Positions 1,570-54,185 of a stretch of DNA of 64,000 bases are shown one piece after another (within the stretch, counting starts at the first letter, position 1; each line of letters begins with the position of its first letter). The notes under the pieces were generated by a model. That model ran no database searches. It saw nothing but the letters and a program-made list of their open reading frames with translations, and was not told the DNA's origin. The DNA lies in assembly GCA_947626285.1 (NCBI GenBank), contig CANQRR010000005.1, forward strand, positions 15,256 through 79,255. The letters are read 5' to 3'. This stretch comes from an uncultured Lachnospiraceae bacterium. GTDB taxonomy: Bacteria > Bacillota > Clostridia > Lachnospirales > Lachnospiraceae. The translations under genes were made by a program, and so were the position numbers.

Positions 1570-2448
1570 TCAGTATTTCTTCCGCGCCCCGAGCTCGCGT
1601 GCCAGCATGACGTAACTCTCGTAGCGCGGCCCCGCGATCTTTCCTTCCTCCAGCGCAGCCTTCACGGCGCAGTCCGGTTCGCTTATATGCATACATCCCT
1701 GAAAGCGGCAGTCCGCTTCGTACGGCGCGAACTCGCGGAAGCAGTCGCGCAGCTCCCCCGGCTCCATCTCCGGAAGATACAGCGAACTGAATCCCGGCGT
1801 GTCCAGGAAGTAAGTATCCTTTCGCAGGACGATCAGTTCGGTATGCCTGGTCGTGTGTCTTCCACGGCCGATCTTACGGCTGACTTCCCCGACCTCCATC
1901 TGCACCGACGGCTGCAGCGCGTTCGTCAGCGATGATTTCCCGACGCCGGACGGGCCCGCGACCACCGTGGTCTTCCCCTCCAGCAGGCTTTGCACTTCCT
2001 CCAGACCTTCCGCATTCGCCACGCTCAAAAACCGCAGCTCGCTGCCGCAGTCCCGGTAGATGTCCGCCAGCTCCTCCTGCACCCCAGAATCCGTCAAGTC
2101 CGTCTTGTTGAAACAGATCACGACCGGCACGTCCTGTCGACGCATCATGATCAGAAAACGGTCCAGCAGGTTCAGGTTCGGCTTCGGATCCGCCAGCGCA
2201 AAGACCACCAGCGCCTGATCCACATTCGCCGCAGCCGGGCGGATCAGGGCGTTTTTGCGCGGAAACAGAAGATCGACGTTCCCGGTCTTCTCCTTCCCGT
2301 CTATGACGGATATCTCCACGTTGTCTCCGACCAGCGGCTTCTGTTTCTCCTTGCGGAAGATTCCCTTCGCCCTGCACTCATACAGCGCTCCGTCCCCCGC
2401 ATGCACATAATAGAAACCGCCGATCCCTTTTATGATCTTTCCCTGCAT
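1570..2448 (-). CDS. rsgA: Ribosome small subunit-dependent GTPase A
   Basis: N-terminal OB fold, circularly permuted GTPase (NKTD, GPSGVGKSS, GRHTT, DTPGF), C-terminal CxxxxCxHxxExxC Zn site. Confidence 0.97.
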   Translation of the reverse strand: MQGKIIKGIGGFYYVHAGDGALYECRAKGIFRKEKQKPLVGDNVEISVIDGKEKTGNVDLLFPRKNALIRPAAANVDQALVVFALADPKPNLNLLDRFLIMMRRQDVPVVICFNKTDLTDSGVQEELADIYRDCGSELRFLSVANAEGLEEVQSLLEGKTTVVAGPSGVGKSSLTNALQPSVQMEVGEVSRKIGRGRHTTRHTELIVLRKDTYFLDTPGFSSLYLPEMEPGELRDCFREFAPYEADCRFQGCMHISEPDCAVKAALEEGKIAGPRYESYVMLARELGARKKY

Positions 2449-4676
2449 CAGTTCCCCTGTTCGACCGTGATCCCCGGATCTGCGGACGGCGCCGTGCCGT
2501 CCTGCGTCGGGACATCCTGCGTCGTGTCGTTCGGCGTCGTGGCATCCGTCGGCGTTCCGTTCGTCGTCTGCCCATCCGGCTGTTCATTGTAGATCGTAAT
2601 GTTGTCCAGATCGTCCTGGGACGCCGGTCCGGTGCTGATATAGAGCGTCACCGTCGACCCGCGCGCGATCTGCTCATTGGCCGGAGGATCCATGCGGATC
2701 ACATAGCCTTCTCCGATCTCATTGCTCGACTCATACTGATAGTCCGCAATCAGCTCCTGCATCTCAAGCGCCTCGTTCGCGCGCTCCAGCGTATATCCGG
2801 TCAAATCCCACGGCGTCACATAGCTGACGTCGTCGACGTCTTCCTCCTCGCCCTGGCTGACATAAATCGTCACCTTGTCGCCCGGCTTCAGCTTCGTCCC
2901 CGCCATCGGCTCCGTCGTGATAACGCGCCCGTCCTCAATCGTATCGCTGTGTCTCGATGTGTCGATCTCACAGCTCAGCCCCTGCGCCAGCAGATATGCC
3001 TGCGCCTGACTCTGTTCCTGGTTCGCCAGATCCGGAAGTTCGATCTCCTGCGCCTCCGGCACGACCTTGTACTCGACCGTCGAGCCCTCTTCGACCATCT
3101 GCCCCGCCTCCGGCGACTGATCGCAGACCTCGCCTGCCTGATAGCGGTCGGATTCGATCTCTCCGGTCTTCTTTCCGCTCAGCCCGTAATTTCCAAGCAG
3201 CTTCAGCGCGTCTTCCTCCGAACGCCCGTAAAGCTCCGGCACGGAGACCTTCTGCACGCCCTCCGTCTCCGTCTGGGCCTCCGTCAGTTTTTCCGTCTCC
3301 TTCTTATTACTATTCCTTCGGAAATGGAACAGTCCGACCGCATTCGCAAGAAGCACCAGGAACACGCAGCCGATGATCACGGCGACAATGATCCCGCCGA
3401 TCGTCACGGCGCGCTCAAGCTTCGGATTCAGCCCAACCTCATCGTCATCCTCCCGGGGACGCGGCGGTCTCGGCACGAAGCTCTCATCCAGCCGGTAGTT
3501 CCCGTCATGGATCGCGTAATCATCCGGATTTTCATATGCGTCAAAGTACGGATCATACTGTTGGTTCTCGTCTGTCGCCTCGCTCTCCACCAGAGATTCC
3601 CACTGTCCCTCCCGGCTCTGTCCTGGACGGACCTCCTGATAGGCGCTCTTCTGGTAATAGCTTCCCGGCTGATACGCGCGGTTCTGCGTAGGACCGGTCT
3701 CCTGCACGTGCAGTCCCGCCGCCGCGCCGACATCCAGAGACTCGTCGTACTCCGGCATCGTCTTCTGCTCCGCATTGATCTGCCCCAGCTCATCCTTCGA
3801 CATAACGCGCGTCTTCGCCATGTTATCCACAGGCGTCTTCGTCACGAAATCCCCTTCCGGGTTCACCAGAGACTCTCTGAGATCGCGGATCAGCTCCGTC
3901 ATGTTCGCATAGCGCCTATCCGGGCTCTTCTGCGTGCACTTGAGCACGATCTCGTTCGTGCTGTGCGGGATCTCCGGCACCAGCTCCTTCGGTCCGTGCA
4001 CCTCCTCCTGGAGATGACGGATTGCCACTGCCACCGCCGTGTCCCCATCGAACGGCACTTCCCCGGTCAACATCTCATAGATCGTGATGCCAAGCGAATA
4101 GATGTCGCTCTTCTCATCGCTGTACCCACCGCGCGACTGCTCCGGAGAGCTGTAGTGCACCGACCCCATCACGGCCGAATTCACCGTGTTGGTCGTCGCC
4201 GCGCGCGCGATGCCGAAGTCCGCCACCTTGACCTTCCCGTCCGTCGATATGATGATGTTCTGCGGCTTCACATCGCGGTGGATGATGCCGTTGTTGTGCG
4301 CGGCCTCCAGTCCCGCTGAGATCTGCAGCGCAATGCTGGTCGCCTCGCGCACGGAGAGCCGCCCCTTGTTCTTGATGTACTCTTTAAGCGTTATACCCTC
4401 GACCAGCTCCATCACAATGTAATGGATCCCGGCCTCCTCGCCGACGTCGTACACGTTCACAATGTTTGCGTGCGCCAGCCCCGCCGCGGACTGCGCTTCC
4501 ACCCGGAACTTTGAGATAAACACCTTGTCGTCCCGGAATTCCCTCTTGAGCACCTTGACAGCGACAAAACGGTTCAGCTTGTGGTCTTTCGCCTTATACA
4601 CGTCTGCCATTCCGCCGGAGCCGATCTTCGATATGATCTCATATCTGTTTTGTATGAACATTCCAACTTTTATCAT
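2448..4676 (-). CDS. prkC: Stk1/PrkC-family PASTA-domain Ser/Thr protein kinase
   Basis: IGSGGMADVY, VAVK, HRDVKPQN, DFG and YSSPE motifs; one TM helix; three PASTA-like repeats; canonical stp-stk-rsgA context. Confidence 0.95.
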   Translation of the reverse strand: MIKVGMFIQNRYEIISKIGSGGMADVYKAKDHKLNRFVAVKVLKREFRDDKVFISKFRVEAQSAAGLAHANIVNVYDVGEEAGIHYIVMELVEGITLKEYIKNKGRLSVREATSIALQISAGLEAAHNNGIIHRDVKPQNIIISTDGKVKVADFGIARAATTNTVNSAVMGSVHYSSPEQSRGGYSDEKSDIYSLGITIYEMLTGEVPFDGDTAVAVAIRHLQEEVHGPKELVPEIPHSTNEIVLKCTQKSPDRRYANMTELIRDLRESLVNPEGDFVTKTPVDNMAKTRVMSKDELGQINAEQKTMPEYDESLDVGAAAGLHVQETGPTQNRAYQPGSYYQKSAYQEVRPGQSREGQWESLVESEATDENQQYDPYFDAYENPDDYAIHDGNYRLDESFVPRPPRPREDDDEVGLNPKLERAVTIGGIIVAVIIGCVFLVLLANAVGLFHFRRNSNKKETEKLTEAQTETEGVQKVSVPELYGRSEEDALKLLGNYGLSGKKTGEIESDRYQAGEVCDQSPEAGQMVEEGSTVEYKVVPEAQEIELPDLANQEQSQAQAYLLAQGLSCEIDTSRHSDTIEDGRVITTEPMAGTKLKPGDKVTIYVSQGEEEDVDDVSYVTPWDLTGYTLERANEALEMQELIADYQYESSNEIGEGYVIRMDPPANEQIARGSTVTLYISTGPASQDDLDNITIYNEQPDGQTTNGTPTDATTPNDTTQDVPTQDGTAPSADPGITVEQGN

Positions 4677-4693: not shown

Positions 4694-5413
4694 CTAAAAT
4701 TCAGCCAGAACTACTGAAATGTTATCTTTGCCCCCGTTTTTGTTCGCCTCGTTCACCAAATGCTTCGCTGCCTCTTCTAGCGAACTGCTTTTTTTCACAA
4801 TGCGGAAAATGTCCTCATCCTCCACCATATTCGTCAAACCGTCGGAGCAGAGCAGGATTTTGTCGCCCTTCTCCAGCTTCACGTCAAAAAAGTCGATCTT
4901 GACCGGCGTCCGGACTCCAATCGCCCTCGTGATGATGTTGCGGTCCGGATGGCTCCTGGCATCCTTGCGCTGCAGCTCCCCGATCCGAATCATCTCCTCC
5001 ACCAGGGAGTGGTCCGTCGTGATCTGTTCGATTCCCTGATTGAGCAGGTAGAGCCTGCTGTCCCCGACATTCGCGACATACAGATACCCGTCGATCAGCG
5101 TGGCCGCTACCACCGTCGTCCCCATGCCTTCCATCGACCGGTCGGAGCGCGCTTTCTCGATCACAAAATCGTTCGCCTGATGGATCGCGGCGCTGAGCAG
5201 GGGAATCGGGCGCGTCTCCTCCGCTTTCCCGATATGATCGACCATAGTCTCCACCGTATAGCGCGACGCAAAATCCCCCGCCTTGTGGCCGCCCATGCCG
5301 TCCGCCACCACAAGCAGGTTCGGAAGGCTTCCGACCGGCTGATCCGAGGCGTAGATAAAGTCCTGGTTGGACGTGCGCCTTTTGCCGATGTCCGTGATGC
5401 TATACGTCTTCAT
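4694..5413 (-). CDS. prpC: Stp1/PrpC PP2C-family protein phosphatase
   Basis: NQD, VADGMGGH, ANVGDSR, LCSDGL and DNIS motifs; probable start MKTYSITD at 5413 with an RBS, and a TTGTCC-17-TAGAAT promoter upstream. Confidence 0.95.
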   Translation of the reverse strand: MKTYSITDIGKRRTSNQDFIYASDQPVGSLPNLLVVADGMGGHKAGDFASRYTVETMVDHIGKAEETRPIPLLSAAIHQANDFVIEKARSDRSMEGMGTTVVAATLIDGYLYVANVGDSRLYLLNQGIEQITTDHSLVEEMIRIGELQRKDARSHPDRNIITRAIGVRTPVKIDFFDVKLEKGDKILLCSDGLTNMVEDEDIFRIVKKSSSLEEAAKHLVNEANKNGGKDNISVVLAEF

Positions 5414-5534
5414 ACCTGTTCTTTCCTCTCTTTTATCTGTCTGAACCGCGCCCGCACTGAAAGAAATCTCACTGCGCACAGCCCATGCTTCCGCGAACAT
5501 TCTATCACACCAGTCCCAAAAGGACAAGCGAATA

Positions 5535-6599
5535 TTAAGTGCTTCGGTCTGATCCGGCCTCAATATAGCCTTTCCACAGCTGGCCGCACGCGCCCGCGAT
5601 GTCGCGCCCCATCTCCCTTCGGATCGTGGCGTTGACCCCGTACTGCTCCAGCTTCCTCTGGAACGCCAGCACGGCGCCGCGGTCCGGCTGGACGAAATTC
5701 CGCTCCTTCACGGGGTTCACCGGGATCAGGTTCACGTGGCAGTTCATGCCGCCAATCAGCCCGGCAAGCTCCTTCGCATCCTGCGCCGTGTCGTTCACGC
5801 CGCCCACCAGGCTGTACTCAAAGGTGATCCTGCGGCCCGTGCGGTCAAAATAATACCGGCAGGCGTCGAGGACGTCCGAAAGCTCATACCGGTTCGCCAC
5901 CGGCATCAGCTGCCTGCGCTTCTCCTGGCTGGACGCGTGCAGGGAGAGCGCCAGCGTGATCTGCAGCTCCTCCTCTGCCAGCGCGCGGATCTTCTCCACG
6001 ATTCCGCAAGTCGACACCGTGACGTTTCTCTGGCTGATGTGCAGGCCATGCTCGCCGGTCAGCAGCCGCAGAAAGCGCAGAAGGTTTTCATAATTGTCCA
6101 GCGGCTCGCCGGTCCCCATCACGACCACGTTCGACACCCGCTCGCCGGTGATCTTCTGGATCTGATAGATCTGATCCAGCATCTCGGACGGCAGGAGGTT
6201 CCGCGTCAGCCCGCCGATCGTCGAGGCGCAGAAACGGCAGCCCATCCGGCAGCCGGCCTGTGAGGAGATGCAGACGGAGTTCCCGTGATGGTACCGCATC
6301 AGCACGCTCTCAATGACATTCCCGTCAGAAAGACGGAACAGATATTTCTCTGTTCCGTCCAACGCGGATATTTTTCGTTCCACCGCCTCAAGGTGAGTGT
6401 AATCATAAGTCTCCCGAAGTTTTTCCCGCAGCCCCTTCGGCAGGTTCGTCATCTCGTCAAATCCGTCCGCCAGCTTCTCATGCATCCACTGAAAGAGCTG
6501 CTTCGCCCGAAACGGCTTTTCGCCCAGCGCGGCGATCTCCGCCGTCAATTCCTCCGGCGAAAGGGAGCGGATATCCCTGATCTTATTGTCTATGTTCAT
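5535..6599 (-). CDS. rlmN: 23S rRNA m2A2503 methyltransferase (radical SAM)
   Basis: CISSQAGCRMGCRFC, MGTGEP and ACGQL motifs; start is 6599 (ATG) or 6611 (GTG). Confidence 0.96.
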   Translation of the reverse strand: MNIDNKIRDIRSLSPEELTAEIAALGEKPFRAKQLFQWMHEKLADGFDEMTNLPKGLREKLRETYDYTHLEAVERKISALDGTEKYLFRLSDGNVIESVLMRYHHGNSVCISSQAGCRMGCRFCASTIGGLTRNLLPSEMLDQIYQIQKITGERVSNVVVMGTGEPLDNYENLLRFLRLLTGEHGLHISQRNVTVSTCGIVEKIRALAEEELQITLALSLHASSQEKRRQLMPVANRYELSDVLDACRYYFDRTGRRITFEYSLVGGVNDTAQDAKELAGLIGGMNCHVNLIPVNPVKERNFVQPDRGAVLAFQRKLEQYGVNATIRREMGRDIAGACGQLWKGYIEAGSDRST

Positions 6600-41429: not shown

Positions 41430-41530
41430 GCAGGCGGAAAATACGGACCCGCCGCCTGCTATTACTGCATACTATACACCCGATTGCCTCATCTGTAAAT
41501 AAAAACTTTTCTTATAATTATCTGATAATA
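41430..41530 (-). promoter_or_regulatory. gltB promoter, leader hairpin and CodY-like box
   Basis: TTTACA (41494-41499)-17-TATAGT (41471-41476); hairpin GCAGGCGG..CCGCCTGC at 41430-41459; AATTATCTGATAATA (41516-41530) matches the CodY consensus at 12/15. Confidence 0.6.
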
Positions 41531-41629: not shown

Positions 41630-42385
41630 TCATCGCAGCAAAATCTGCAGGAAAATCGCCGTCAGATTGCTTCCCATATGGAATAGTACCGGGAAAATGA
41701 ACAATTTCCCGTGCTCGTAGATCAGCGCCAGCACGATTGCAAGAGGAAACGCGAAGATCATCTGGATCGGATTTCCGTGGTATACGGCAAACAGAAGCGC
41801 TGACAGGACGGCTGACATCCATACGGGAAAAAACTGCCGCATCCTCCGGTAGGTCAGCCCCCGGAAGATCAGCTCCTCCGCGATCGGAGCCGCGATCCCT
41901 AACCCAACGATCTGCAAAAGCAGACTCGTCGCAAGCAGCTGCTCCTGCACCTGGTTGGAAAAATGTTCCTGTAACTGCAGCAGATTCAGCACGCTGCTCC
42001 AGGCGATGTTGAGCGCGCCTCCGCCGATGAAGCAGATCGCGCCAAACAACACCTGTCGTCGCGTCAGCCTTGACCTGGTGTCAGCCTCCGATTCGCAGTC
42101 TTTTCTTTCCGGCAGGGACTGCATTCCCGGCACAGCTCTCCTTCCGGACACGGCTTCCTTTTCGGATCTGCCTGTCTCGGACAAAACTGCCCTCCGGCTG
42201 TCTCTCCAATGCATCCATGCCGCGATCGGGAGTACAAGCAGATTGCCGATCAACACCACAAGCGCCGCGTCGTACGGCAATCCGTACTGGTCTGCGCACA
42301 GGCGGAGCACAAAGGCCACCGCCAGTGCAACCGTCTGATGTAGAAGCAGCGGCGTCAACAGCGAAACGAGTTTCCGTGCGCTCAC
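41630..42385 (-). CDS. CPBP (CAAX/Abi) family intramembrane metalloprotease
   Basis: EELIFRG, FAVYH and FHMGSN motifs; GTG start at 42385 behind GAGGAGG; own TTGCGT-17-TACAAT promoter (42436-42464). Confidence 0.9.
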   Translation of the reverse strand: MSARKLVSLLTPLLLHQTVALAVAFVLRLCADQYGLPYDAALVVLIGNLLVLPIAAWMHWRDSRRAVLSETGRSEKEAVSGRRAVPGMQSLPERKDCESEADTRSRLTRRQVLFGAICFIGGGALNIAWSSVLNLLQLQEHFSNQVQEQLLATSLLLQIVGLGIAAPIAEELIFRGLTYRRMRQFFPVWMSAVLSALLFAVYHGNPIQMIFAFPLAIVLALIYEHGKLFIFPVLFHMGSNLTAIFLQILLR

Positions 42386-42504
42386 CTGCGTATCCTCCTC
42401 TCCACATTTCTCTCTCATTACAAAGTAACAGCCCAATTGTATCAGATTGGATCATCTGACGCAACCGGGCTGATAGAAATTCCCTTTGTCTTTTCAGCTT
42501 TCTG

Positions 42505-43644
42505 TTATTCGTTTCCCTCAATCAGCGGGACGTCAGCCCCCGCGATGCTCCACGCGCCGTCGCGGTATGCCAGCAAAAACGTTGCGGTCAAATCATCGGA
42601 GCGGGAATCCCGCTTCGTCTCCTGAATCGGAGTGCCGTCCTCCTGCGTCTCCTCCGTGTCCGCCGTGACATCCTCGCGCAGCAGATAGTGGTAGCCAAGC
42701 GTCATCTCTACGGTGATCGCGCCGTCCTCTCCCTCCGTAAAGACCGGATTCCCGTACTGCGGCGCAAACCTGGAGACCGCCACGCTCTGGAACACCCGGT
42801 TTTCCTGATGGAAGGCGCCCCCCTGACTCTTCACGAAGCTCTCCGCCTGCTCCTTGCACGCGTCGAACACAGTGAGCTCACCCGCATCTTCCTTCACCGC
42901 AGCCGCATAGAGCTGTTTGAGCGCCGTGATTCCAAGCTCCAGGCACTCGTCCTGCGCGGATCTTTTCAGGATCATCTGCGCGCTGTAATCCTGATTTCCG
43001 TCATTCGTGTCCAGCGTCGTGTTCACGGACTCAAGCGCCGGATGACGGATCACCAGGCTCTTTCGCCCCGGCAGCATGCTCGGGATCCGATAGCGGTCAA
43101 AGGAAGCCGGTACGCCGTCCCGCGTGATCCACGACGCGTCCGCCGGCTGGTTGTCCAGATAGACCTGCGCCCCTGCCGGCACCGTGATCTCAAGATCCTT
43201 CACCATGCAATGTCCGGAGAGCACCTTCCACTGGTCAAAGACCCCGAATGCCGCCTTCGCCTGCTTCTTTACCGTAAGCTCCTCGGCAAACTGCACGGCG
43301 TCCTCCGCATCCTTAAACTCCGCGTGGAAATCTACATACTCATTTCCATTGTCGTCCGTGCGCTTCGTCACCTCTTCGACCGTATAGGCCGCGCACAGAC
43401 CATACTGCCTGCCCTGCAGCGCCTCCGCGAACTCTTCCGCAGTCATCGAATCCTCCTCCGACTGATCCAGCAGTTCAAAAGCCTTCTCACTGTCGTCTTC
43501 CAACAGGAGCGACAGATAACGGTCTATGATATAGTCGGGCGCGCTGCGCTGATAAGTCCTGAATCCAACCGCTCCTCCGGCCGCCAATGCGACGACCAGA
43601 CAGAACAGGATCAATTTCAATAACACCCTCATAAACGCTTTCAT
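42505..43644 (-). CDS. Membrane-anchored hypothetical protein, TcaA-like (NTF2-like / beta-sandwich / NTF2-like)
   Basis: One N-terminal TM helix, acidic extracellular part ending in WKV and WSI strands, central ITVPAGAQVYLD segment; the fold assignment is by resemblance only. Confidence 0.6.
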   Translation of the reverse strand: MKAFMRVLLKLILFCLVVALAAGGAVGFRTYQRSAPDYIIDRYLSLLLEDDSEKAFELLDQSEEDSMTAEEFAEALQGRQYGLCAAYTVEEVTKRTDDNGNEYVDFHAEFKDAEDAVQFAEELTVKKQAKAAFGVFDQWKVLSGHCMVKDLEITVPAGAQVYLDNQPADASWITRDGVPASFDRYRIPSMLPGRKSLVIRHPALESVNTTLDTNDGNQDYSAQMILKRSAQDECLELGITALKQLYAAAVKEDAGELTVFDACKEQAESFVKSQGGAFHQENRVFQSVAVSRFAPQYGNPVFTEGEDGAITVEMTLGYHYLLREDVTADTEETQEDGTPIQETKRDSRSDDLTATFLLAYRDGAWSIAGADVPLIEGNE

Positions 43645-43659: not shown

Positions 43660-44601
43660 TTAATATCCGCCCAGAGCGGCTTCGTAGTTCATGATGACAT
43701 TGAGGTTGGCCTCCTCGTAGTCATTCAGATAATAGAACATGTTCGCGTCAAATTCCTCCGGAGAGTAGGTCGGAACATACCAGGATTTCTGGCTGAAATA
43801 ATCGCGCAGATCCTGTGAATCGAAAATGCGTCCGTGCAGCGCAAAGATCTCATTCCGGATCAGGCGGAGCTGTCCCAGGTCGTAATTGTAAAGCTCCTCC
43901 TCCCCGATGTATCGGCTGCTGATTCCCTGGATGATCACATCGTCGGGTGTCGACGCGGAGCCACCCCCGCCGTTATCGCTGACACTGATGTTGTCCCCGC
44001 TCCCACCATCGTAGGAATAGCTGCCGTTTCCGGGATCCTGTATCTCGATCGGCTGCTCGTAGGAGCCGTCGCTGTAGCCCTCGTCGCCGTAGCTGCCATC
44101 GCTATAATTTCCATCGCCCGAAGAATAGCCTCCCTCCCCGGAACCGTCGCCGGAAAAACTTCCGTCCCCGGAGCCATTGCCAGAAAGACTGCTATTTCCG
44201 AAACCGTCGTCGATAGCTATGTCAGCGGAGCCGTCGTTCAAAGATCCCTCCCCGTTTTCCGGCGCATTCTCTTCCCCGGTCTCGCCTTCTTCCGAAGTCT
44301 CGCTCTCCGTCTGCTTCTGCTGCGGCACCTCGGACTCTACCCCTTTAATGACATTCCCGGATGCCGTCACCGTAAACGGATCCGTCTCAAAGACACGGTC
44401 TCCACCGGCTTCCGGCGCAAGCGTCTCAGCCGTATCGGTATCCGCCTCCTGCTGCGTCTCCTTCTCATCCGGCTTCAGCAGCAGCGACGCCAGATCCTTC
44501 GTCATGACAGCGTCCGCGGTAAAAAAGGATACGACTGCTGCCAACAGACAGCCGACAATAAATCCGCTGTTCCGTTTCAGAACATTCTTTTTCTTTTTCA
44601 T
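43660..44601 (-). CDS. YARHG-domain exported protein
   Basis: N-terminal TM or signal segment, G/S/D/Y-rich linker, LIRNEIFALHGRIF..DLRDYFSQKSWY (YARHG); own TGGACT-17-TATGAT promoter. Confidence 0.88.
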   Translation of the reverse strand: MKKKKNVLKRNSGFIVGCLLAAVVSFFTADAVMTKDLASLLLKPDEKETQQEADTDTAETLAPEAGGDRVFETDPFTVTASGNVIKGVESEVPQQKQTESETSEEGETGEENAPENGEGSLNDGSADIAIDDGFGNSSLSGNGSGDGSFSGDGSGEGGYSSGDGNYSDGSYGDEGYSDGSYEQPIEIQDPGNGSYSYDGGSGDNISVSDNGGGGSASTPDDVIIQGISSRYIGEEELYNYDLGQLRLIRNEIFALHGRIFDSQDLRDYFSQKSWYVPTYSPEEFDANMFYYLNDYEEANLNVIMNYEAALGGY

Positions 44602-44664: not shown

Positions 44665-47451
44665 CTACTTTTTCTTCCGAACCCCCGTCGTAGCGCATGC
44701 AAGCGTAGTAGCCGCAAACATGACCAGTCCAAGGATCAGAAGGATCATTCCCTCCATCCGCGCCCCGGCGGCACGCAGCCCGACAGAACGCGTCCCGACC
44801 GCCCCGCTGTCCGCCGTCCCGGATGCCGCGCCCAGATCCGCCATGCGCTTTTCCTGCACGCCGGACGGCTCTGCCTTTACCCCGGTACTGGCCTTTTCCA
44901 CCTGCGCCGCTTCTTCTGCTTTGGGAAGCTCCGGCTTTTCCGCTTCCTGCTGCGCCTTTTCTCTGGCGCTCGGCCTGGTCTTCACATATTCCGGCACGTC
45001 CTTCGTCTGCGGCGAAAGAAAGACCGGCAGTTCCTCCGTCCAATACTCGTTTCCCGCCATATCGCTCAGATAGACCTGCAGGGTCTGCCAGTCCTTCGAC
45101 GCTTTCAACGGGATCGCAATGGTCTGATCAGAGAGCTTGTCACCCTCCTTTTCCATCAAAAGCTCGCTGTCAAGATATACCCGGACTGTTTTCAGTTCAA
45201 TGTTGTCATACGGCGTCAAGCGCGCCGTGAGTTCCTCCGCCTTGTAGATCTTCTGCTCGATTCCCGTCAGCGTACAGCCGGGATCGGTCCAGTCAAGCGC
45301 AAAGACCACCCGTTTTTCCTGCATTCCGGTATCGCTTTTATTTTCCGCCGAATCCTCCGAGGTCAACAAAAGCTCATAGACTCCCTCCTTCGAAAAATAT
45401 TCGGCGGGAACCGTGTAGCGGTACTGTTTCCAGGAATCCCTGCTTCCCTCCATCGTGACCTGGTAATCCTGTCCCCGCTTCAGCTCGGTCAGCGCCCCAT
45501 CCCGCCTGCAGAAAATGCGCGATTCCCCGACATAGTCAATGTTTGTCTCATAGAACGTCACATCCTCCGCCTTTGACAGAAAATACTGTTTCAGGTTCTC
45601 CCGTGTCGACTGGTCCAGATCGTACACAGAACCAAAGCGGTTGACCGAAAATTCCAGCGTCTTTTCCGCGGCGTTGCCTGCCAGATCCTCCGCCCGCACC
45701 TGCAGCCGGTACACATCGTCGAATTCCTTCTGCTGCGGAACATTGAAATACTCCAGCGTGACCCCCTCCCCGGTTTCCTTTCTATCGTTCATCGCCGGCG
45801 ATTTCCCGCTATTGAGTCCCACCAGCGACATCTGCGCGGAACCGCTCTTGTAATGCGCGTCTTTCACGGCGACGCGCACCTTGACCTCCCCGGAGTTTGC
45901 GGTCTGATCGCCCACGCCCTCGATCGTCACCTCCGGCGGTCTGCGGTCGATGCAGACTGGGCTGCTCTGGGCAAACGCCAGATTCCCCACCTGATCCTCC
46001 GTCCGGACGAACACGCGAAATGTGCCCTCTTCACGCAAGGTGATCTGCTCCCCGTTCTTGCAGACTGTCCAGGCCGCCGTCTCCGGGTTCCCCTGCAGCG
46101 CCCCGTCCGGACCGCATGGAATCACCGCGTAGGCGGCGCTCTTTAGACCGCTCTTTCCGTCCGGGCCGATCGTCATAGACACTTCGGAAGACTGCGCCGC
46201 GTAGACCATGCCATTTTCAGACGTCCCGGAGACCGCAATCTCCGCCTGCGGAGCTTCTCCATCCACATAGTACGCCTCCCTGCTGAGTGCCGATTCCCGG
46301 ACAATCCGGCTGTCCGCGTCCACCTTTTTCAGGCTGAACACCAACTTACCGTCCTCTCTCAGGTCGTATTTTCCCGTACCCTCGCTGTAATCTCCGCCTC
46401 CGGACACGCGCACATAGAGATTGGTCCCCGGACGGACCCAGAGTCTGTCCTGTGCGTCGCGGAACCATGCGCCCGGATCTCCCTCGATCTCATAATGTTT
46501 CCCGCGTTGGACCTCCTCCGGGACATACTCCGTCTCCTGCGGCAGTGTTTCCGGCTCAACCGGCTCAATCGGCTCAACCGGTTCTTCCGGCTCCGTCGAT
46601 TCAGCCGGCTCCGCTGTCTCGGCTGTCCCGGTCTGTTCCGTTGCTTCAGTCGCTTCCGTTGTCTCAGTCGCTTCCGTTGCCTCAGTCGCTTCCGTCGTCT
46701 CAGTCGATTCCACTGATTCAGTCGTTTCCATCGACTCGATCTCTTCTGTCGGCTCTGACGTTTCCATCTGCCCCGGCATCTCTGTTTGTACAAGCGTCTC
46801 TGTCTGCTCCGTGAGCTCTGTCTGTTCTGACGTCTCGATCTGTCCCACAGGCTCTGTCTGTGCACTTGTCTCTGCTTGCTCTGTGGACTCTGTCTGCACG
46901 GTCGTTTCTGCCGGTTCCACAGATTCTGTCTGTGCGCCTTTCTCCGTCTGCTCCGTGGGTTCTGTCTGCGCGGCCGTCTCCGACTGCCCCAGTGTTCCTG
47001 TCTCTATTTCGCCCTCATTTCCCGTCTCGGTCTCGCTCTCTGTCTCCGTTTCGTTCTCACTCTCTGTCCCGGTCTCACTCTCGCTTTCCGTCCCTGTTTC
47101 GCTTTCCGTCTCCGTTTCACTCTCACTCTCCGCCTCTGTCTCTCCCTCCTCCGGCGGTCTCTGCGATATGTCCCCTGCTTCTACAACTCCGGTCTCCAAT
47201 ATCTCCATCTTCTCCGCATCAGCTCCCGCACTATCTGCTATCACAGGGAGCTGTTCAAACTCTGTTTCACCCGGAAGGCTCCCTGCAAGTCCCGCCGTCC
47301 CAACCGCCATCACACAGATCACCAGAACCAGACTGCAGGCAAGATACCTGCCTCCGGTCGTCTTTCGGGCATACCTTTTTACGTCGCACACTTTCCCCTG
47401 CACCTTCCCGGCTGCCGCCCTGCGTCTCGTTTCGTTTTTCCTTTTCTTCAT
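44665..47451 (-). CDS. Large acidic surface protein with E/T-rich repeats, Ig-like repeat domains and a C-terminal membrane anchor
   Basis: Signal-like N-terminus; VRTEDQVGN, VRAEDLAGN, SEDSAEN and LSDMAGN Ig-repeat signatures; C-terminal TM helix followed by RKKK; probable start at 47451. Confidence 0.8.
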   Translation of the reverse strand: MKKRKNETRRRAAAGKVQGKVCDVKRYARKTTGGRYLACSLVLVICVMAVGTAGLAGSLPGETEFEQLPVIADSAGADAEKMEILETGVVEAGDISQRPPEEGETEAESESETETESETGTESESETGTESENETETESETETGNEGEIETGTLGQSETAAQTEPTEQTEKGAQTESVEPAETTVQTESTEQAETSAQTEPVGQIETSEQTELTEQTETLVQTEMPGQMETSEPTEEIESMETTESVESTETTEATEATEATETTEATEATEQTGTAETAEPAESTEPEEPVEPIEPVEPETLPQETEYVPEEVQRGKHYEIEGDPGAWFRDAQDRLWVRPGTNLYVRVSGGGDYSEGTGKYDLREDGKLVFSLKKVDADSRIVRESALSREAYYVDGEAPQAEIAVSGTSENGMVYAAQSSEVSMTIGPDGKSGLKSAAYAVIPCGPDGALQGNPETAAWTVCKNGEQITLREEGTFRVFVRTEDQVGNLAFAQSSPVCIDRRPPEVTIEGVGDQTANSGEVKVRVAVKDAHYKSGSAQMSLVGLNSGKSPAMNDRKETGEGVTLEYFNVPQQKEFDDVYRLQVRAEDLAGNAAEKTLEFSVNRFGSVYDLDQSTRENLKQYFLSKAEDVTFYETNIDYVGESRIFCRRDGALTELKRGQDYQVTMEGSRDSWKQYRYTVPAEYFSKEGVYELLLTSEDSAENKSDTGMQEKRVVFALDWTDPGCTLTGIEQKIYKAEELTARLTPYDNIELKTVRVYLDSELLMEKEGDKLSDQTIAIPLKASKDWQTLQVYLSDMAGNEYWTEELPVFLSPQTKDVPEYVKTRPSAREKAQQEAEKPELPKAEEAAQVEKASTGVKAEPSGVQEKRMADLGAASGTADSGAVGTRSVGLRAAGARMEGMILLILGLVMFAATTLACATTGVRKKK
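46545..47150. repeat. Coding low-complexity tandem repeats (EPV/EPI, TEA, 12-aa TEQTE-type, ETES)
   Basis: 18-bp units like CTCAGTCGCTTCCGTTGC at about 46645-46730, degenerate 36-bp units at about 46750-46980, and 6/12/18-bp ETES units at about 47030-47140. Confidence 0.85.
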
Positions 47452-47458
47452 CAAAAAC

Positions 47459-49255
47459 CTATCCCCTTTCTCCTGCAAATATCCGCTCCACCGCCTCCCC
47501 GGCGACCTCACACTGTTCCCGGCACGAAACGACAATCTCTCCCTCCGCGCTGTTCTCCTGCGTAAAATTTTTAATCGACTCCAGCATCTCATTCATCTGC
47601 CGCATATCGATTCCCTCCTTGTCTAACTCATGGGCGTGCATGATCAGAATCGACAGCAATTCGCCCGCGACCTCGCACTGCACCCGGATCGGCTCCCGCC
47701 GAAGCCCATCCAGGCTCCACAGTTCGCTTAAATCTTTCCAGTATACGCCGATGCCCGCCTGCTGTTTTCCGTCCATGTCCTGCTTTCCCAGTGTTTCGTA
47801 GTAAGCGCCGATCCGCAGATAGATCTTCGCCGCCTGCAGCCAGAGCCAGGCATCCGCCTGCGTTTCCTCACCCATCTCTCTGGAGCCATTTCCCGACACT
47901 TTGACTTCCCCGCCTATCCCCTTGGAACCATTTCCCGACGCTTCGGCTTCCCCATCCGTCCCTTCAGCTATGCTTTTCTCCTCTTCCACTGCCTCGACGG
48001 ACCGCTCGAACCAACGGGCTGCCGCGTTCTTTCCTCCCGCTCCCTCATAGAAATACCAATACAGAAGCCCAACCCGGTACGCCAGCTCGCCATACTTCGG
48101 GGATGATTTCGCCAACAGCTCCTCCACTGTGACGGCACTCCCCTCCGGCGATGAAAACATCAGGTGCTTCAGAGAAGCCTCCTCCTGCGCATTGAAGGAA
48201 TAATCCGCTTCGATCCGGTCAAGAAAGGACTCGCACCAGACGCTGTCTCCCGGGCAGAGCGCGGCGGCTTCCTCGTAGCACAGAACAGCCTGCGCAAACC
48301 CAAGCCCTTTCGCCTCGTCCAGACGGGCCTCGTACTTCTCAGCCCTTCCATCCGTCATTGCAATGCTCGGACTTTCCCAGCGCAGGGTTGACGCGGAAAA
48401 GAGAAGAACCATGAGAAGAAACATCGCGGCAAGCCCGCTTTTGCGCCTTGCGCTGCGCGCGGCATACCGCCGCTCGATCTTTTGGACACTTTTGCACAGG
48501 GCGCATGTGTCCGGAAAACGACTTTCCCTGTCTTCCGCAAGGCAACGCCGGAGCAGCGGAGCGATCAGCCTTCGCCAACGGATCCTGTCCGACTGCATCC
48601 TCCTTGCGCAAACGTCCACCGACCGCGGCGTCTCCATGTACAGGCAATAGTAGAGCACCGCGCCAAAGCCGTAAAAGTCCGTCCGGCAGTCCAGCACGGC
48701 TCCCGAAATCCTCTGCTCCGGCGCGGCAAAGCCCGGCGTCCCGAAACAGGGTTCGTTCTTTCCTGCCGAGTGTTCCCGGACCGCCGCACCGAAGTCAAGC
48801 AGTACAAGCCTTCCGCCCGGCCGCAGCATGATGTTCGGCGGCTTGATATCCAAGTGAAGAATCGGCGGTTTTCTCGTGTGCAGGTACTGCAGGACATCCG
48901 CAAGCTGGCGCGCGGCGGAGAAAAACTCCTCCGGTCCTATTCCGGAGCGCAGGCAATCGGACAGCGGCTTTCCGTTTATAAACTCCATGATCAGCCACAC
49001 TGCCCCGCAGTCCTCAATCAGGTCGAATATCTGCGGCAATGCCGGATGCTTCAGGCGCTTCATCAGGTCCAGCTCGCGCATCCGCCGCTCCGGCGCGTCT
49101 GTCTTCAGCCTCTTCGCGGCGCGGAACTGTTCCGTCGGGACATGCCGTACCAGATACACGGTGCCGTCCCCGCCGGATCCCAGCCTTCTTATGATTTGAT
49201 AATCGCGGCCGATCCGTTGCCCGGCCTCCTGATACCTCCCTTCTGTCAGTCCCAT
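47459..49255 (-). CDS. Second Hanks-type Ser/Thr protein kinase with a TM helix and a helical (TPR-like) extracellular domain
   Basis: LGSGGDG, AAK, HLDIKPPN, DFG and GTPGFAAPE motifs; TM at GLAAMFLLMVLLF; ATG at 49255 behind AAGGAGGG. Confidence 0.88.
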   Translation of the reverse strand: MGLTEGRYQEAGQRIGRDYQIIRRLGSGGDGTVYLVRHVPTEQFRAAKRLKTDAPERRMRELDLMKRLKHPALPQIFDLIEDCGAVWLIMEFINGKPLSDCLRSGIGPEEFFSAARQLADVLQYLHTRKPPILHLDIKPPNIMLRPGGRLVLLDFGAAVREHSAGKNEPCFGTPGFAAPEQRISGAVLDCRTDFYGFGAVLYYCLYMETPRSVDVCARRMQSDRIRWRRLIAPLLRRCLAEDRESRFPDTCALCKSVQKIERRYAARSARRKSGLAAMFLLMVLLFSASTLRWESPSIAMTDGRAEKYEARLDEAKGLGFAQAVLCYEEAAALCPGDSVWCESFLDRIEADYSFNAQEEASLKHLMFSSPEGSAVTVEELLAKSSPKYGELAYRVGLLYWYFYEGAGGKNAAARWFERSVEAVEEEKSIAEGTDGEAEASGNGSKGIGGEVKVSGNGSREMGEETQADAWLWLQAAKIYLRIGAYYETLGKQDMDGKQQAGIGVYWKDLSELWSLDGLRREPIRVQCEVAGELLSILIMHAHELDKEGIDMRQMNEMLESIKNFTQENSAEGEIVVSCREQCEVAGEAVERIFAGERG

Positions 49256-49530
49256 CCCTCCTTTCCTTTTTCGTTCTGTTCGGTTGCGCGCAGAGCGCCG
49301 CAGACTTATTCTGCGCGAACCGAACAGCAGACAAAATAAATTCCTGTCGGCGTTACTCCGTTTTCTCTGGTGTAAGGTGAATGATGGGCGAAGTGCCCGG
49401 ACGGGAGCTCCCTCCTGCCAGAAAGCATCCCTTGTAAGATTGTTAAACTGAGACACGCATGTAGTGTAATGCGTGTCTCATATAATTTGTAGTGATATTA
49501 TCGCTTATTTTAGAAAAAATGTCAAGCGAT
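49256..49530 (-). promoter_or_regulatory. Promoter and ~235-nt structured 5' leader of the kinase operon
   Basis: TTGACA (49520-49525)-17-GATAAT (49497-49502); perfect 12-bp hairpin at 49449-49480; long hairpin at about 49276-49326. Confidence 0.6.
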
Positions 49531-49566: not shown

Positions 49567-50475
49567 CTACGGCTCATCCTCCTTTTGGAGAAAATACGCG
49601 TCAACGCCGTCCGCGATTCCTTCCGCCATGCGCTCCTGTACCTCTGGATCCGCCATGCGCAGATCGTCCGACTCGTTCGTCATAAACCCCATCTCAAGGA
49701 TCATGACCGGCAGTCTGCTCCAGTTGATCCCGGTCATATCATCATAATACTGAACGCCAAGCGACGTAAACTCCACCTTCTCACAGTATGCGTTCAAAAT
49801 GCAGTCTGCAAGCGTATAGGACTCCTCAGCCAGATCTCCCACATAGGGGTTTTGTGGGGAAGGAACCATCGCCAGCGCCCCGCTCACGCTGGAGTCATCC
49901 AGACCATTCGCATGGATTCGCAGGAAAATATCCCCGCCCTCCTCGTACGCCAGCTGCGCCCGCTCCGCGTTGCTGATCGCGGTGTCATTGTCCTCCCTTG
50001 TCATGACGACCTCATAGCCGCGCTCCTCCAACTCGTCGCGCAGCAAAAGTGAGATCGTGAGATCCAGCTCATATTCCGGCACGCCGGTAAAGCGTCCCTG
50101 CGTGCCGGTCGCCGCCTTTGCCTTCATCTCAGAGGAACCCGGGCCAAGCGGCTCCGTGCCGCTCATATCGACGTTGCTCCCCTGATGGCCCGGATCGATC
50201 GCCACCGTCCACTTCTTCCCGTTCTCCGGCTCCGTCTCAGATTCCGGCTTCGTCTCATGCTCAGTTTCCGTCCGCGCCTTCTCCGAATCCGGCATTTTCG
50301 TCTCCGCCGATATCGCCTCTGCTTCCTGTGTCTCAGTTTCCGCCTGCATCTTCAGTGTCTCCTGCGTCTCCCCAGACTCCGCTTTCAGGCATAGTCCCTG
50401 GGGCAGTGCAAAAAGAGACAGCGCCAGAATACAACCTGCCGCTATCCGCCCGGTTTTCCTTTGTCCTCTTTTCAT
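49567..50475 (-). CDS. N-acetylmuramoyl-L-alanine amidase (Amidase_3)
   Basis: Signal peptide, E/T-rich linker, IDPGHQG, EYEL, RIHAN and ILEMGFMTN motifs. Confidence 0.92.
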   Translation of the reverse strand: MKRGQRKTGRIAAGCILALSLFALPQGLCLKAESGETQETLKMQAETETQEAEAISAETKMPDSEKARTETEHETKPESETEPENGKKWTVAIDPGHQGSNVDMSGTEPLGPGSSEMKAKAATGTQGRFTGVPEYELDLTISLLLRDELEERGYEVVMTREDNDTAISNAERAQLAYEEGGDIFLRIHANGLDDSSVSGALAMVPSPQNPYVGDLAEESYTLADCILNAYCEKVEFTSLGVQYYDDMTGINWSRLPVMILEMGFMTNESDDLRMADPEVQERMAEGIADGVDAYFLQKEDEP

Positions 50476-52454: not shown

Positions 52455-54185
52455 CTAGAAGAAATCGTCTCCCTGCAGCGCATCGAAGCCCTCTTCGCCC
52501 GTGCGCACCTTCACGACGTTCGCCACGTTGTAGACGAAGATCTTGCCGTCGCCGATGTGCCCGGTGTACAGCGCCTTCTTCGCGGCCGCGATCACGGCGG
52601 CCGGGGAAACCTTGCTGACGACGACGTCCACCTGAATCTTCGGAAGCAGGTTCAAATCCATCTGTACGCCGCGGTAGTACTCCGCCTTGCCCTTCTGTGT
52701 GCCGCAGCCGAGCACGTTCGTCACCGTCATGCCCATGACGCCGATCTTGTTCAGCGCTTCCTTCAGCTCGTCAAACTTACTCTGCTTCGCGACGATCGTG
52801 ATCTTCGTGATGTTCGTGTCGCTCGCGATCGTCTCGGTCGGAGTCTTGACCTGTACCGGAACCGCGTCGTCCACATGGACCGGATTCTCCGGGAGAGGCA
52901 TGTCATACGTGTCGCGCACGCCACCGAAGTTGTTGATGCTGGAGGTCTGCGCAAAGTCCGCGTACGCCGAAGCCAGACCATGCTCGTGGATATCCAGGCC
53001 CTCGATCTCCTCCGTCACAGAAGCGCGCAGGCCAACCGTGTGCTTCAGCACGTTGAAGATGATCGTCATCGTCACAGCCACCCACGCGATCACACACACA
53101 ACGCCGAGCAGCTGAGTGAGGAAGAAGTGGAAACCGCCGCCGTAGAACACGCCCAGCTTCTCGCCCGTTCCGAAATCATAGTAAGCAAACAGTCCTGTCA
53201 GCAGCGTGCCGGTCATGCCGCAGATGCCGTGAACGCCGACCGCACCCACCGGGTCGTCTACCTTCAGCTTCTGATCCACAAACTCAATGCCAAGCACTAC
53301 TGCAAATCCGGCTACGATACCAATGATCGCCGCGCCCACCGGGGTCACTGTGTCACAGCCCGCGGTGATCGCCACAAGGCCCGCCAGGGAACCGTTCAGC
53401 GTCATGGAGACATCCGGCTTCTTGTAGCGCACCCAGGTGAAGATCATCACCGTCACGGTAGCGACCGCAGCCGCCAGGTTCGTGGTGTAGAAGATTCTGG
53501 AAGCCCTCGCCGCGTTGTCGCCGGACATCGCAAGCGTCGAGCAGCCGTTGAATCCGAACCAGCAGAACCAGAGGATAAATACGCCGAGCGCCGCCAGCGT
53601 CATGCTGTGCCCAAGGATCGCGTTCGGCTTGCCGTCCTTGCCATACTTGCCGATACGCGGCCCAAGCACCGCCGCACCCACGAACGCAGCCACGCCGCCG
53701 ACCATATGTACCGCCGTCGAACCCGCGAAATCATGGAAGCCAAGCTGTGCCAGCCAGCCGCCGCCCCAGATCCAGTGACCCGAGATCGGGTATACAAACA
53801 GGCTGATCAGCGCGCTGTAGATGCAGTACGCGGAAAATTTCGTGCGCTCAGCCATCGCACCAGAAACGATGGTAGCCGAAGTCGCGCAGAATACCGTCTG
53901 GAAGATCATCGTCGCGTAGTCGTCGGTCTTCATGCAGAACAGGTCAAGTCCGCCGATCAGCGCGCCCGTCCCGCCGAACATGATGCCGAAGCCGATGAAC
54001 CAGTAGATCGGTGTACCAATACAGAAGTCCATCAGGTTCTTCATCACGATGTTGCCCGCGTTCTTCGCACGCGTCAGACCGGTCTCCACCATCGCGAAGC
54101 CCGCCTGCATGAAGAACACAAGCGCCGCGCCGACCAACACCCAGGTAGTGTCCAGTCCGGTAATCAAAGTTTTCAGTTCATCCAT
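52455..54185 (-). CDS. amt: Ammonium transporter fused to a C-terminal PII (GlnK/GlnB-like) domain
   Basis: MQAGFAMVE, FQTVFCAT, HDFAGS, WFGFN and DDPVGAVGVH motifs; PII domain with GCGTQKG, LLPK and GHIGDGKIF. Confidence 0.95.
   Translation of the reverse strand: MDELKTLITGLDTTWVLVGAALVFFMQAGFAMVETGLTRAKNAGNIVMKNLMDFCIGTPIYWFIGFGIMFGGTGALIGGLDLFCMKTDDYATMIFQTVFCATSATIVSGAMAERTKFSAYCIYSALISLFVYPISGHWIWGGGWLAQLGFHDFAGSTAVHMVGGVAAFVGAAVLGPRIGKYGKDGKPNAILGHSMTLAALGVFILWFCWFGFNGCSTLAMSGDNAARASRIFYTTNLAAAVATVTVMIFTWVRYKKPDVSMTLNGSLAGLVAITAGCDTVTPVGAAIIGIVAGFAVVLGIEFVDQKLKVDDPVGAVGVHGICGMTGTLLTGLFAYYDFGTGEKLGVFYGGGFHFFLTQLLGVVCVIAWVAVTMTIIFNVLKHTVGLRASVTEEIEGLDIHEHGLASAYADFAQTSSINNFGGVRDTYDMPLPENPVHVDDAVPVQVKTPTETIASDTNITKITIVAKQSKFDELKEALNKIGVMGMTVTNVLGCGTQKGKAEYYRGVQMDLNLLPKIQVDVVVSKVSPAAVIAAAKKALYTGHIGDGKIFVYNVANVVKVRTGEEGFDALQGDDFF

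Follow-up and report, generated by a model that had tools for sequence, protein, structure and literature searches.

A membrane kinase and an Ig-like protein related to type VII secretion components are encoded without the secretion system, beside envelope genes, in a gut Lachnospiraceae bacterium

The type VII secretion system (T7SS) subtypes T7SSd and T7SSe were defined by Garrett, Higginson and Palmer in 2024 in microLife (PMC11217815). Their parts include TsxD, a membrane kinase with a helical extracellular C-terminus, the one-helix proteins TsxH and TsxK, and TsxI, a large immunoglobulin (Ig)-like protein with a Sec signal and a C-terminal membrane helix, as well as the PPM phosphatase TseF, the DUF6382-FHA protein TseJ, a YukD-like protein, WXG100 proteins, and EssC (PMC11217815). 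The large Ig-like protein was proposed to serve as an envelope-spanning conduit or as a target-recognition part of the secretion machine (PMC11217815). Here, we describe a related kinase–Ig pair in a 64,000-nt stretch of contig CANQRR010000005.1 (positions 15,256 to 79,255; hereafter, the window) from an uncultured Lachnospiraceae bacterium of the rabbit gut, the source assembly of which comprises 3.73 Mb in 147 contigs with a completeness of 97.6%. All genes of the module that we describe are on the minus strand of the window, and the two genes of the pair are:

47459..49255, minus strand: Hanks-type membrane Ser/Thr kinase of 598 aa, a TseD/TsdD-like paralogue according to profiles, structure model, and homology, with the kinase domain in residues 1-270, a membrane helix in 272-293, and a TPR-like helical ectodomain in 297-598.
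44665..47451, minus strand: Ig-like envelope protein of 928 aa, TseI/TsdI-like according to Pfam, model, and homology, in which an N-terminal membrane or signal segment and a stalk rich in glutamate and threonine (E/T; residues 96-330) precede about five beta-sandwich domains (331-815), and a linker leads to the C-terminal helix with its KKK tail.

The kinase gene is preceded by a GGAGGG ribosome-binding site, and its product belongs to the Hanks kinases, with the Pfam model Pkinase (PF00069) matching residues 19-214 at 118 bits against a cut-off of 31.7. The catalytic motifs are present (GSGGDG, K48, E61, HLD136, N141, DFG154, and G172-T173), and the replacement of HRD by HLD makes the protein a non-RD kinase. 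G26, G28, K48, D136, and K138 are retained in all 66 relatives having a residue at the site, N141, D154, G156, and G172 in 67 of 67 relatives, and the activation-loop T173 in 66 of 67, while the residues of the A178-P179-E180 motif, present in the window kinase, are retained in 57, 60, and 59 of the 67, respectively. By these residues, the protein looks like an active non-RD kinase rather than a pseudokinase. PF03793, the PASTA model, had no match in the kinase, and the PASTA-kinase model NF033483 scored 103.6 against a cut-off of 450 with the kinase domain alone contributing. The initial annotation had described the protein as a non-PASTA kinase with intact motifs, a transmembrane segment, and a helical ectodomain and had found no phosphatase or FHA gene next to it, and both descriptions are borne out: there is one membrane helix, and the PP2C gene of the window (4694..5563) pairs with the other Hanks kinase of the window, which is a PASTA kinase (2448..4676).

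The ectodomain was modeled as an all-alpha domain of 13 helices and ~300 residues (predicted local distance difference test score (pLDDT) 90.8; predicted template modeling score (pTM) 0.87) with a disordered, lineage-specific insert at ~430-465 in the protein numbering. A profile of 42 ectodomains matched consensus TPR proteins in the PDB with E = 6.5e-18; a Foldseek search with the model returned helical-repeat proteins throughout with a best E of 0.24 and no solved structure like the whole domain, and no Pfam model covers it. When the ectodomain profile was run against 1.84 billion representative proteins, 573 clusters were found at E <= 1e-10; most of the best 150 matches listed are 500-720 aa long and carry the domain C-terminally, which is the same architecture, and the shorter ones among these 150 look like fragments.

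The stop codon of the kinase gene (TAG, 47461-47459) is followed by 7 nt and then by the ATG of the Ig gene at 47451, matching the initial annotation in spacing and in the size of the encoded protein (~930 aa). An alternative in-frame TTG at 47478, which would overlap the end of the kinase gene, is the start of a 937-aa version in a public collection. The Ig protein begins with a basic N-terminus and a hydrophobic segment (residues 32-61), and its stalk consists to 52% of E and T, has a net charge of -69, and is encoded by degenerate tandem repeats of 18/36/72 nt. Pfam matches are to Big_3_3 and Big_13; residues 331 to ~815 were modeled as about five beta-sandwich domains (pLDDT mostly 75-95) rather than the four Ig-like repeats first counted, and they are followed by a disordered linker, a membrane helix at 899-924, and the sequence GVRKKK. 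The acidic stalk, the C-terminal membrane helix with a basic tail, and the lack of LPxTG had been noted from the sequence from the start; the LPxTG sortase-anchor motif is absent from the window protein as well as from every homologue for which the C-terminus was read, and all of these C-termini consist of a membrane helix and a basic tail. In an alignment of 30 sequences, the membrane-proximal Ig domains are strongly conserved with dozens of invariant residues, whereas the distal part varies widely, with homologues ranging from ~620 to 3010 aa. Foldseek on the Ig model found generic multi-Ig chains only (e.g., S-layer proteins and cadherins; TM-score 0.13-0.23).

To place the pair among its relatives, one genome per species was scanned for Ig-protein relatives, giving 380, of which the best 78 loci were analyzed; all 78 are labeled Lachnospiraceae or unclassified Clostridiales/Eubacteriales save one Oscillospiraceae. 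Cultured strains with Ig relatives include Robinsoniella peoriensis, Muricoprocola aceti, Jingyaoa shaoxingensis, Laedolimicola ammoniilytica, and Anaerosacchariphilus hominis. Gene content was read with hidden Markov models (HMMs) built from the first four loci; 61 loci had upstream DNA and 51 had full flanks. As an independent family sample, we used 301 genomes, one genome from each of 300 genera.

In other Lachnospiraceae genera, complete T7SS loci include homologues of both window proteins. Specifically, in locus L109, in which Pfam identifies WXG100 (1.4e-19), YukD, and FtsK_SpoIIIE, the kinase aligns with the window kinase end to end, including the ectodomain, with 25% identity over ~600 aa (E = 2e-52), and the 2226-aa Ig protein aligns with the window Ig protein with 32% identity over 355 aa (E = 3e-53). 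Moreover, an ectodomain HMM built from loci of the window's kind alone (termed YARHG-type after a neighboring gene described below) scored 56-111 bits on the kinases of L081-L093, which belong to the clade with PP2C- and EssC-linked loci. From these alignments we conclude that the window pair, as judged by sequence, are homologues or paralogues of the T7SSe-type TseD and TseI: a kinase with a TseD-type helical ectodomain and a TseI-type Ig protein are both present. EssC was found in 67 of the 301 family genomes, 29 of which encode the kinase as well (odds ratio 3.9; Fisher p = 9e-6), and 16 kinase loci share a contig with EssC. Five EssC-linked loci that were read contain DUF6382-FHA, PP2C, kinase, small membrane protein, Ig, WXG100, a second FHA, a ParA/TadZ-like ATPase, YukD, and an EssC of ~1,520 aa, except that one has no Ig match in the stretch examined and another has the Ig gene first. 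Likewise, in the more distant kinase–Ig loci the kinase gene is flanked by a PP2C gene and the gene for a small membrane protein, and in the three genomes of other Clostridia families that have the kinase, the PP2C/kinase set is in turn preceded by a DUF6382-FHA gene. The initial annotation had likened the pair to accessory genes flanking T7SSb loci in Lachnospiraceae; the likeness to genes of T7SS loci and the association of the homologues with each other and with T7SS hold, but the loci agree in their components with the list published for T7SSe (PMC11217815), so that the subtype is T7SSe-like and not T7SSb.

By contrast, the secretion system itself was not detected in the genome of the window. 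PF06013 (WXG100) gave no match at E <= 0.01; the best score of the EssC model TIGR03928 was 106.7 bits against a cut-off of 778 (FtsK/SpoIIIE-like partial matches), with none at E <= 1e-50; and an EssC HMM derived from T7SSe loci reached 76 bits, compared with >2500 for true members. HMMs for WXG100, YukD, and the small membrane protein of T7SSe loci had no match in this genome either, with the reservation that small divergent proteins can escape such searches, and no TxxL-repeat scaffold was found there. No PPM phosphatase (TseF), DUF6382-FHA (TseJ), or small one-helix protein (TseH/K) is encoded next to the window operon or in any other YARHG-type locus, and a single FHA protein is encoded in the genome, in a Tad locus. 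The congener G199 (99% complete, 30 contigs) has no EssC either, 38 of the 67 kinase-bearing genomes in the family sample are EssC-less, and none of the YARHG-type loci has PP2C, FHA, or EssC within 10 kb. The early suggestion of a detached or repurposed system thus agrees with the genome-wide searches and with the separate clade of the window kinase (see below).

We made several side observations on the secretion-linked relatives. In genome G057 (L104:10104-16000), the genes after those for the kinase and the small membrane protein encode three DUF6382-FHA paralogues in tandem, then a ParA/TadZ-like ATPase, then an RHS-repeat protein (DUF6531 and RHS), and EssC lies ~12 kb beyond; the RHS-repeat protein is a candidate for a toxin secreted by this T7SS. 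Small membrane proteins encoded after the kinase carry repeated TTxL motifs (ETTVL, ATTLL, ATTVL) in L102:10401-10886, L103:7712-8137, and L104:9538-10113, and these motifs could be phosphothreonine docking sites for FHA proteins. In Laedolimicola and Anaerosacchariphilus (L085:796-3773 and L092:3115-6093), genes for an HlyD-like adaptor and a MacB/FtsX permease precede (PP2C-)kinase-Ig. The MacB/FtsX-HlyD arrangement recalls the TagS/TagT transporter upstream of PpkA in Pseudomonas.

In the window, the pair is embedded in a larger set of envelope genes, comprising an amidase gene upstream of the kinase gene and three genes downstream of the Ig gene:

49567..50475, minus strand: N-acetylmuramoyl-L-alanine amidase (Amidase_3) of 302 aa (PF01520, 117.7 bits).
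43660..44601, minus strand: membrane-anchored YARHG-domain protein of 313 aa (PF13308, 73.5 bits against a cut-off of 27).
42505..43644, minus strand: protein U of 379 aa, with an N-terminal membrane helix and an extracytoplasmic domain (no family match).
41630..42436, minus strand: CPBP/Rce1-like intramembrane glutamic protease of ~240-268 aa, start codon uncertain (PF02517, 65.3 bits against 22.4).

The amidase has a signal-like N-terminal segment and an acidic linker. In the YARHG protein, a membrane helix (residues 11-34) and an acidic G/S/D-rich linker precede the YARHG domain (222-307), placing the domain outside the cytoplasm, and a 2012 proposal describes YARHG as an extracellular domain that possibly binds peptidoglycan (PMC3355149). 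Protein U has no Pfam or PDB relative, and 3 of 26 relatives gave a weak match to MecA_N (NTF2-like). The CPBP protein is a predicted protease in which the family motifs EExxxR, FxxxH, and HxxxN are present as AEELIFR, FAVYH, and HMGSN. We considered this protein as a sorting enzyme for the C-terminal helix and basic tail of the Ig protein; this idea is unsupported, as homologues from CPBP-less loci share the same ending. Based on sequence prediction, all five products of the operon starting with the kinase gene are membrane-anchored with extracytoplasmic parts.

The kinase–Ig order is kept across relatives to a higher degree than the rest of the neighborhood. A kinase with the same ectodomain is encoded directly upstream of the Ig gene in 60 of the 61 loci with upstream DNA. 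Among the 51 loci with full flanks, 34 have the order kinase-Ig-YARHG-U-CPBP, including 28 that also have the amidase; five have kinase-Ig-CPBP, 11 kinase-Ig only, and one Ig alone; and CPBP is the last cluster gene in 39. The full order recurs in L001, L002, and L004 at an Ig identity of only 44-49%. The amidase ortholog is directly upstream of the kinase in ~30 clade-I loci (the clade of the window), and in clade-II loci (Robinsoniella/Marvinbryantia) the amidase gene lies between U and CPBP. In the family sample, the ectodomain occurs in 67 genomes, and 51 of 71 matches have a same-strand Ig gene downstream; in many of the other cases, the match is at the end of a contig, or the Ig gene is found upstream or on a different contig. 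These gene orders show that the kinase–Ig pair is the constant core of these loci, tight and independent of context.

In sequence, the T7SS/PP2C-linked kinases separate from those of the YARHG-type loci with full support. In a tree of 73 kinases (quick maximum-likelihood search, midpoint root), all PP2C- and EssC-linked kinases, including those of other families, fall in a clade of 22 (support 100); the window kinase, YARHG-type loci, and a kinase-Ig-CPBP subclade form a clade of 39 (support 100); and the YARHG-type loci of Robinsoniella, Marvinbryantia, and Muricoprocola form a clade of 12. Loci inside the YARHG clades that seem to hold only the pair are mostly on contigs that end early. Both kinds of kinase locus are present in genome G112, on separate contigs (C39 and C76). 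The kinases of other families group with the PP2C/EssC-linked ones, and for this reason we infer that the secretion-linked form may be the older and the secretion-free form the younger.

The YARHG-U-amidase genes also occur without the pair. Protein U is always paired with a YARHG gene, including in loci without kinase and Ig genes. In genome G176 the order is argS-YARHG-U-amidase-CPBP without a kinase or Ig gene, and in G112 it is argS-kinase-Ig-YARHG-U-amidase-CPBP-gltB; in addition, looser U relatives occur elsewhere in the family without kinase-Ig, with a small YARHG-like gene before and often an amidase gene after. Based on the gene order in G176 and G112 and these kinase-free relatives, we conclude that the window operon is, in terms of gene order, a fusion of the kinase–Ig pair with a YARHG-U-amidase-CPBP envelope module. 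The recurrent YARHG-U-amidase set looks like an undescribed peptidoglycan-amidase module in gut Lachnospiraceae.

As a separate observation, a small YARHG-like gene, a U-like gene, and a gene for a protein of ~320 aa stand together with no kinase–Ig pair in L115:7391-11025, L117:6637-9449, L119:6479-9599, and L120:7148-11059. The gene after the ~320-aa gene is Amidase_3 in L115 and L120, and in L120, genes for a PP2C and a 689-aa kinase stand a few genes ahead of the module.

The initial annotation had treated kinase and Ig gene as a two-gene module; instead, the promoter, the gaps, and the conserved order indicate a five-gene operon with an adjacent amidase gene. The control elements ahead of the kinase gene are:

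49497..49525, minus strand: sigma-70-type promoter TTGACA-17-GATAAT of the kinase operon (11 of 12 consensus positions).
49256..49496, minus strand: 5' leader of ~240 nt with a 12-bp hairpin at 49449-49480 (covarying pairing in relatives).

This promoter is the sole strong minus-strand promoter across 49700-41550 and is kept in L017-L019, L021, and L022; the next strong one (41499..41471) is ahead of gltB. The gaps between the genes are 7 nt (kinase-Ig), 63 nt (Ig-YARHG), 15 nt (YARHG-U), and, under the longest CPBP reading frame, ~70 nt (U-CPBP). No minus-strand terminator with a strong stem was found inside the operon, the two minus-strand sites listed having stems of six pairs. Spacing and the promoter/terminator scan thus predict that kinase-Ig-YARHG-U-CPBP form one operon, with the amidase gene adjacent and ending 41 nt upstream of the operon promoter. 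In the leader, the hairpin follows the -10 box, and its pairing survives changes on both arms in L016-L022 (GAGACACGCAT/ATGCGTGTCTC, GAGATGCATAT/ATATGCATCTC, and GAGACGCATAT/ATATGCGTCTC); the segment CCGTCCGGGCAnTTCGCCCA is likewise conserved, and no Rfam family matched the leader at gathering score. Because changes on both arms keep the pairing and a T-run follows the hairpin in relatives, the hairpin looks like an attenuator.

Genes for nitrogen assimilation surround the operon. The glutamate synthase genes gltB (36832-41415) and gltD (35335-36819) come after CPBP in the window and likewise in 27 of the 45 related loci, among them loci of the distant Robinsoniella clade, and an ammonium-transporter/PII (Amt-PII) fusion gene (52455-54185 in the window) is often upstream of the module in related loci. 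We considered a functional link to nitrogen assimilation and rejected it; gltB has its own promoter and the linkage is missing in several subclades, and the persistent location of the module among these genes is probably inherited gene order. Elsewhere in the window, Rfam identifies the Clostridiales-1 small RNA RF01699 (94-224, minus strand) with 55.4 bits against a gathering score of 48.

Taken together, we consider it fairly probable, arguing from sequence and gene order, that the kinase and the Ig protein form a wall-spanning receptor-kinase complex joined to a peptidoglycan-amidase module and that the pair works alone as an envelope sensor. In this receptor complex, the TPR-like ectodomain of the kinase would be the docking site of the conserved Ig domains near the membrane, and the distal part of the Ig protein, which varies among homologues and is here the acidic E/T stalk, would be an antenna through or beyond the wall that reports contact or the state of the wall. 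Activation would proceed by autophosphorylation at the (near-)invariant activation-loop Thr173, followed by phosphorylation of cytoplasmic targets. The proteins encoded alongside (amidase, YARHG, U, and CPBP) might open the wall locally for the stalk protein, or their activity might itself be what the kinase tunes. The signal could possibly be read by the single DUF6382-FHA membrane protein of the genome.

Several points weigh against this interpretation. In the T7SSe-type cassette, a phosphatase, an FHA reader, and the TxxL scaffold offer an obvious read-out, and all three are missing from the operon; the co-occurrence of DUF6382 with the kinase is uninformative about an FHA link, as DUF6382 is near universal, being present in 291 of the 301 family genomes (97%) compared with 67 (22%) for the kinase. 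The output side is the weakest part of the explanation. Also, the gene order is conserved within one bacterial family and, therefore, in part reflects vertical inheritance; the amidase gene is upstream of the promoter and may be transcribed apart from the operon; and the tree is from a quick search with a midpoint root, which makes the inferred ancestral form provisional.

A broader proposal, which we put forward tentatively, is that the kinase–Ig pair is not a structural part of the T7SS but an autonomous and portable Gram-positive receptor-kinase unit that lineages have plugged into T7SSe, Tad pili, or, as here, an amidase/YARHG/CPBP module. In the window bacterium, the pair would make local wall hydrolysis or cell separation respond to contact at the surface or to the state of the wall, and would do so with neither a phosphatase nor an FHA reader of its own.

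Somewhat less probable, and indeed doubtful in our view, is that the pair acts as the sensing part of a switch by which threonine phosphorylation controls the Tad (type IVc) pilus, with a logic like that of PpkA/PppA/Fha1. In this scheme, a target phosphorylated by the kinase would be read by the only FHA protein of the window's genome, a DUF6382-FHA protein encoded by the last gene of a complete Tad-type pilus locus on another contig (C14; L105:1251-11463), which also contains genes for an A24 prepilin peptidase, a TadZ-like protein, TadA/CpaF, TadB/C, and DUF5702 and two TadE-like genes. The phosphothreonine-binding residues of this FHA protein (R, SRRH, and NGT) are intact, and it has a hydrophobic stretch long enough for two membrane helices; we note that it resembles the published description of TsfJ. 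In line with a Tad connection, in all three kinase genomes from other Clostridia families (L100-L102) the kinase gene comes after prepilin peptidase or TadE-like genes, DUF6382-FHA, and PP2C, and the best match of the T7SSe ParA-like protein in the window's genome is the TadZ-like gene. Yet the link rests on gene order in these distant relatives only: the clade of the window has lost the PP2C gene and the TxxL-repeat membrane protein, it never adjoins DUF6382-FHA or Tad genes, and the frequencies of DUF6382 and the kinase given above carry no co-occurrence signal. We regard the Tad link as a live rival, or as an add-on, to the envelope-sensor reading.

An unlikely alternative is that the Ig protein acts simply as an adhesin or as a surface protein associated with the wall, with the kinase as a functionally unrelated neighbor. 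Adhesins show distal length variation of the kind seen here (~620-3010 aa), and the fold matches are to generic multi-Ig chains; against this stand the kinase-then-Ig order in 60 of 61 loci, spread over three clades and at least four contexts (T7SS, Tad, MacB/HlyD, and gltB), a gap of 7 nt or an overlap between the two genes, and an ectodomain family that is almost confined to kinases of this architecture.

Much less plausible still is that the pair serves a T7SS whose core genes escaped a fragmented and incomplete assembly. A genome in 147 contigs at 97.6% completeness leaves room for missed genes, and kinase and EssC are on separate contigs in 14 of the 29 sampled genomes with both; nonetheless, the searches for WXG100, EssC (106.7 bits against 778), and the T7SSe-locus proteins were negative, the nearly complete G199 and more than half of the kinase genomes (38/67) are likewise without EssC, and no YARHG-type locus has EssC within 10 kb. 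Finally, a catalytically dead scaffold, as in the pseudokinase EssB of T7SSb or the degenerate CD2148, which is without the catalytic Asp and Asn (PMC11217815, PMC9674922), would accord with HLD in place of HRD and is highly improbable given that non-RD kinases can be active, that Lys, Asp, Asn, DFG, and the GT threonine are (near-)invariant in 67 homologues, and that a dedicated PP2C in related loci implies real phosphorylation.

Returning to the envelope-sensor reading, we favor a sensing role for the pair over the role of a secretion conduit because the pair persists, linked and with an intact active site, without the secretion ATPase, because 38 of 67 kinase genomes are EssC-less, and because it is fused to an amidase module. 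The secretion-free form offers a simpler system in which to study the kinase–Ig pair, and the proposal is testable in the cultured carriers Robinsoniella peoriensis, Muricoprocola aceti, and Jingyaoa shaoxingensis as well as in Parablautia sp. Marseille-Q6255, if that record is an isolate. The analysis also defines two families without a Pfam model, i.e., the sensor domain of the kinase and protein U.

EssB and EsaA of T7SSb have an analogous topology, i.e., a membrane (pseudo)kinase and a large extracellular envelope-spanning protein, and the likeness is one of topology alone; unlike the active-looking window kinase, EssB is catalytically dead, and EssB and EsaA both belong to the structure of a secretion machine that the window's genome does not have. 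CPBP/Abi proteins modulate sensor kinases, as SpdC does with WalK in Staphylococcus aureus and Abx1 with CovS in group B Streptococcus. As in these cases, the CPBP protein of the window is encoded together with a membrane sensor kinase, on which it could act; different from them, the partners of SpdC and Abx1 are histidine kinases, and the window CPBP protein keeps its protease motifs. The PASTA kinases PrkC, StkP, and IreK are, like the window kinase, single-pass Hanks kinases of Bacillota in envelope sensing, whereas the window kinase has a TPR-like ectodomain, no adjacent PP2C, and an obligatory Ig-protein neighbor.

In the Gram-negative Pseudomonas aeruginosa, PpkA/PppA/Fha1 with TagQRST form the threonine-phosphorylation pathway of the H1 type VI secretion system (T6SS). 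PpkA resembles the window kinase in being a membrane Hanks kinase with an extracytoplasmic domain and envelope co-sensors, and it controls a membrane machine post-translationally; however, the sensor proteins are unrelated, and the window operon is without a phosphatase, an FHA partner, and a secretion apparatus. The Agrobacterium case of such a T6SS pathway is cited in the T7SSd/e work (PMC11217815). CD2148, the second, PASTA-less membrane kinase of Clostridioides difficile, has been linked to control of the peptidoglycan hydrolase CwlA and to cell separation (PMC9674922, PMC8262956). By description, it is a PASTA-less Clostridia membrane kinase like that of the window and provides a precedent for an effect on a hydrolase and on cell separation, although CD2148 is monocistronic, is without the catalytic Asp and Asn, and has no described Ig partner.

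The closest relatives remain TseD/TsdD and TseI/TsdI (PMC11217815). TseD/TsdD have the same architecture as the window kinase, i.e., an active kinase at the N-terminus, a single membrane helix, and an extracellular C-terminus made of helices; TseI/TsdI have the same layout as the window Ig protein, i.e., an N-terminal signal, Ig-like domains, and a C-terminal membrane helix; and the genes are close together on the same strand. The published TseD and TseI are likened here by description, and sequence homology is shown to their counterparts in T7SS loci such as L109. Different from T7SSe, the window operon is without EssC, WXG100, YukD, PPM phosphatase, and small membrane protein, DUF6382-FHA is found only in the Tad locus, and the pair is joined to YARHG, U, CPBP, and Amidase_3 with its kinase in a separate clade. 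We conclude that this kind of T7SSd/e-type kinase–Ig pair has already been described, from genomes only, and that the variant presented here is its secretion-free form with YARHG, U, amidase, and CPBP.

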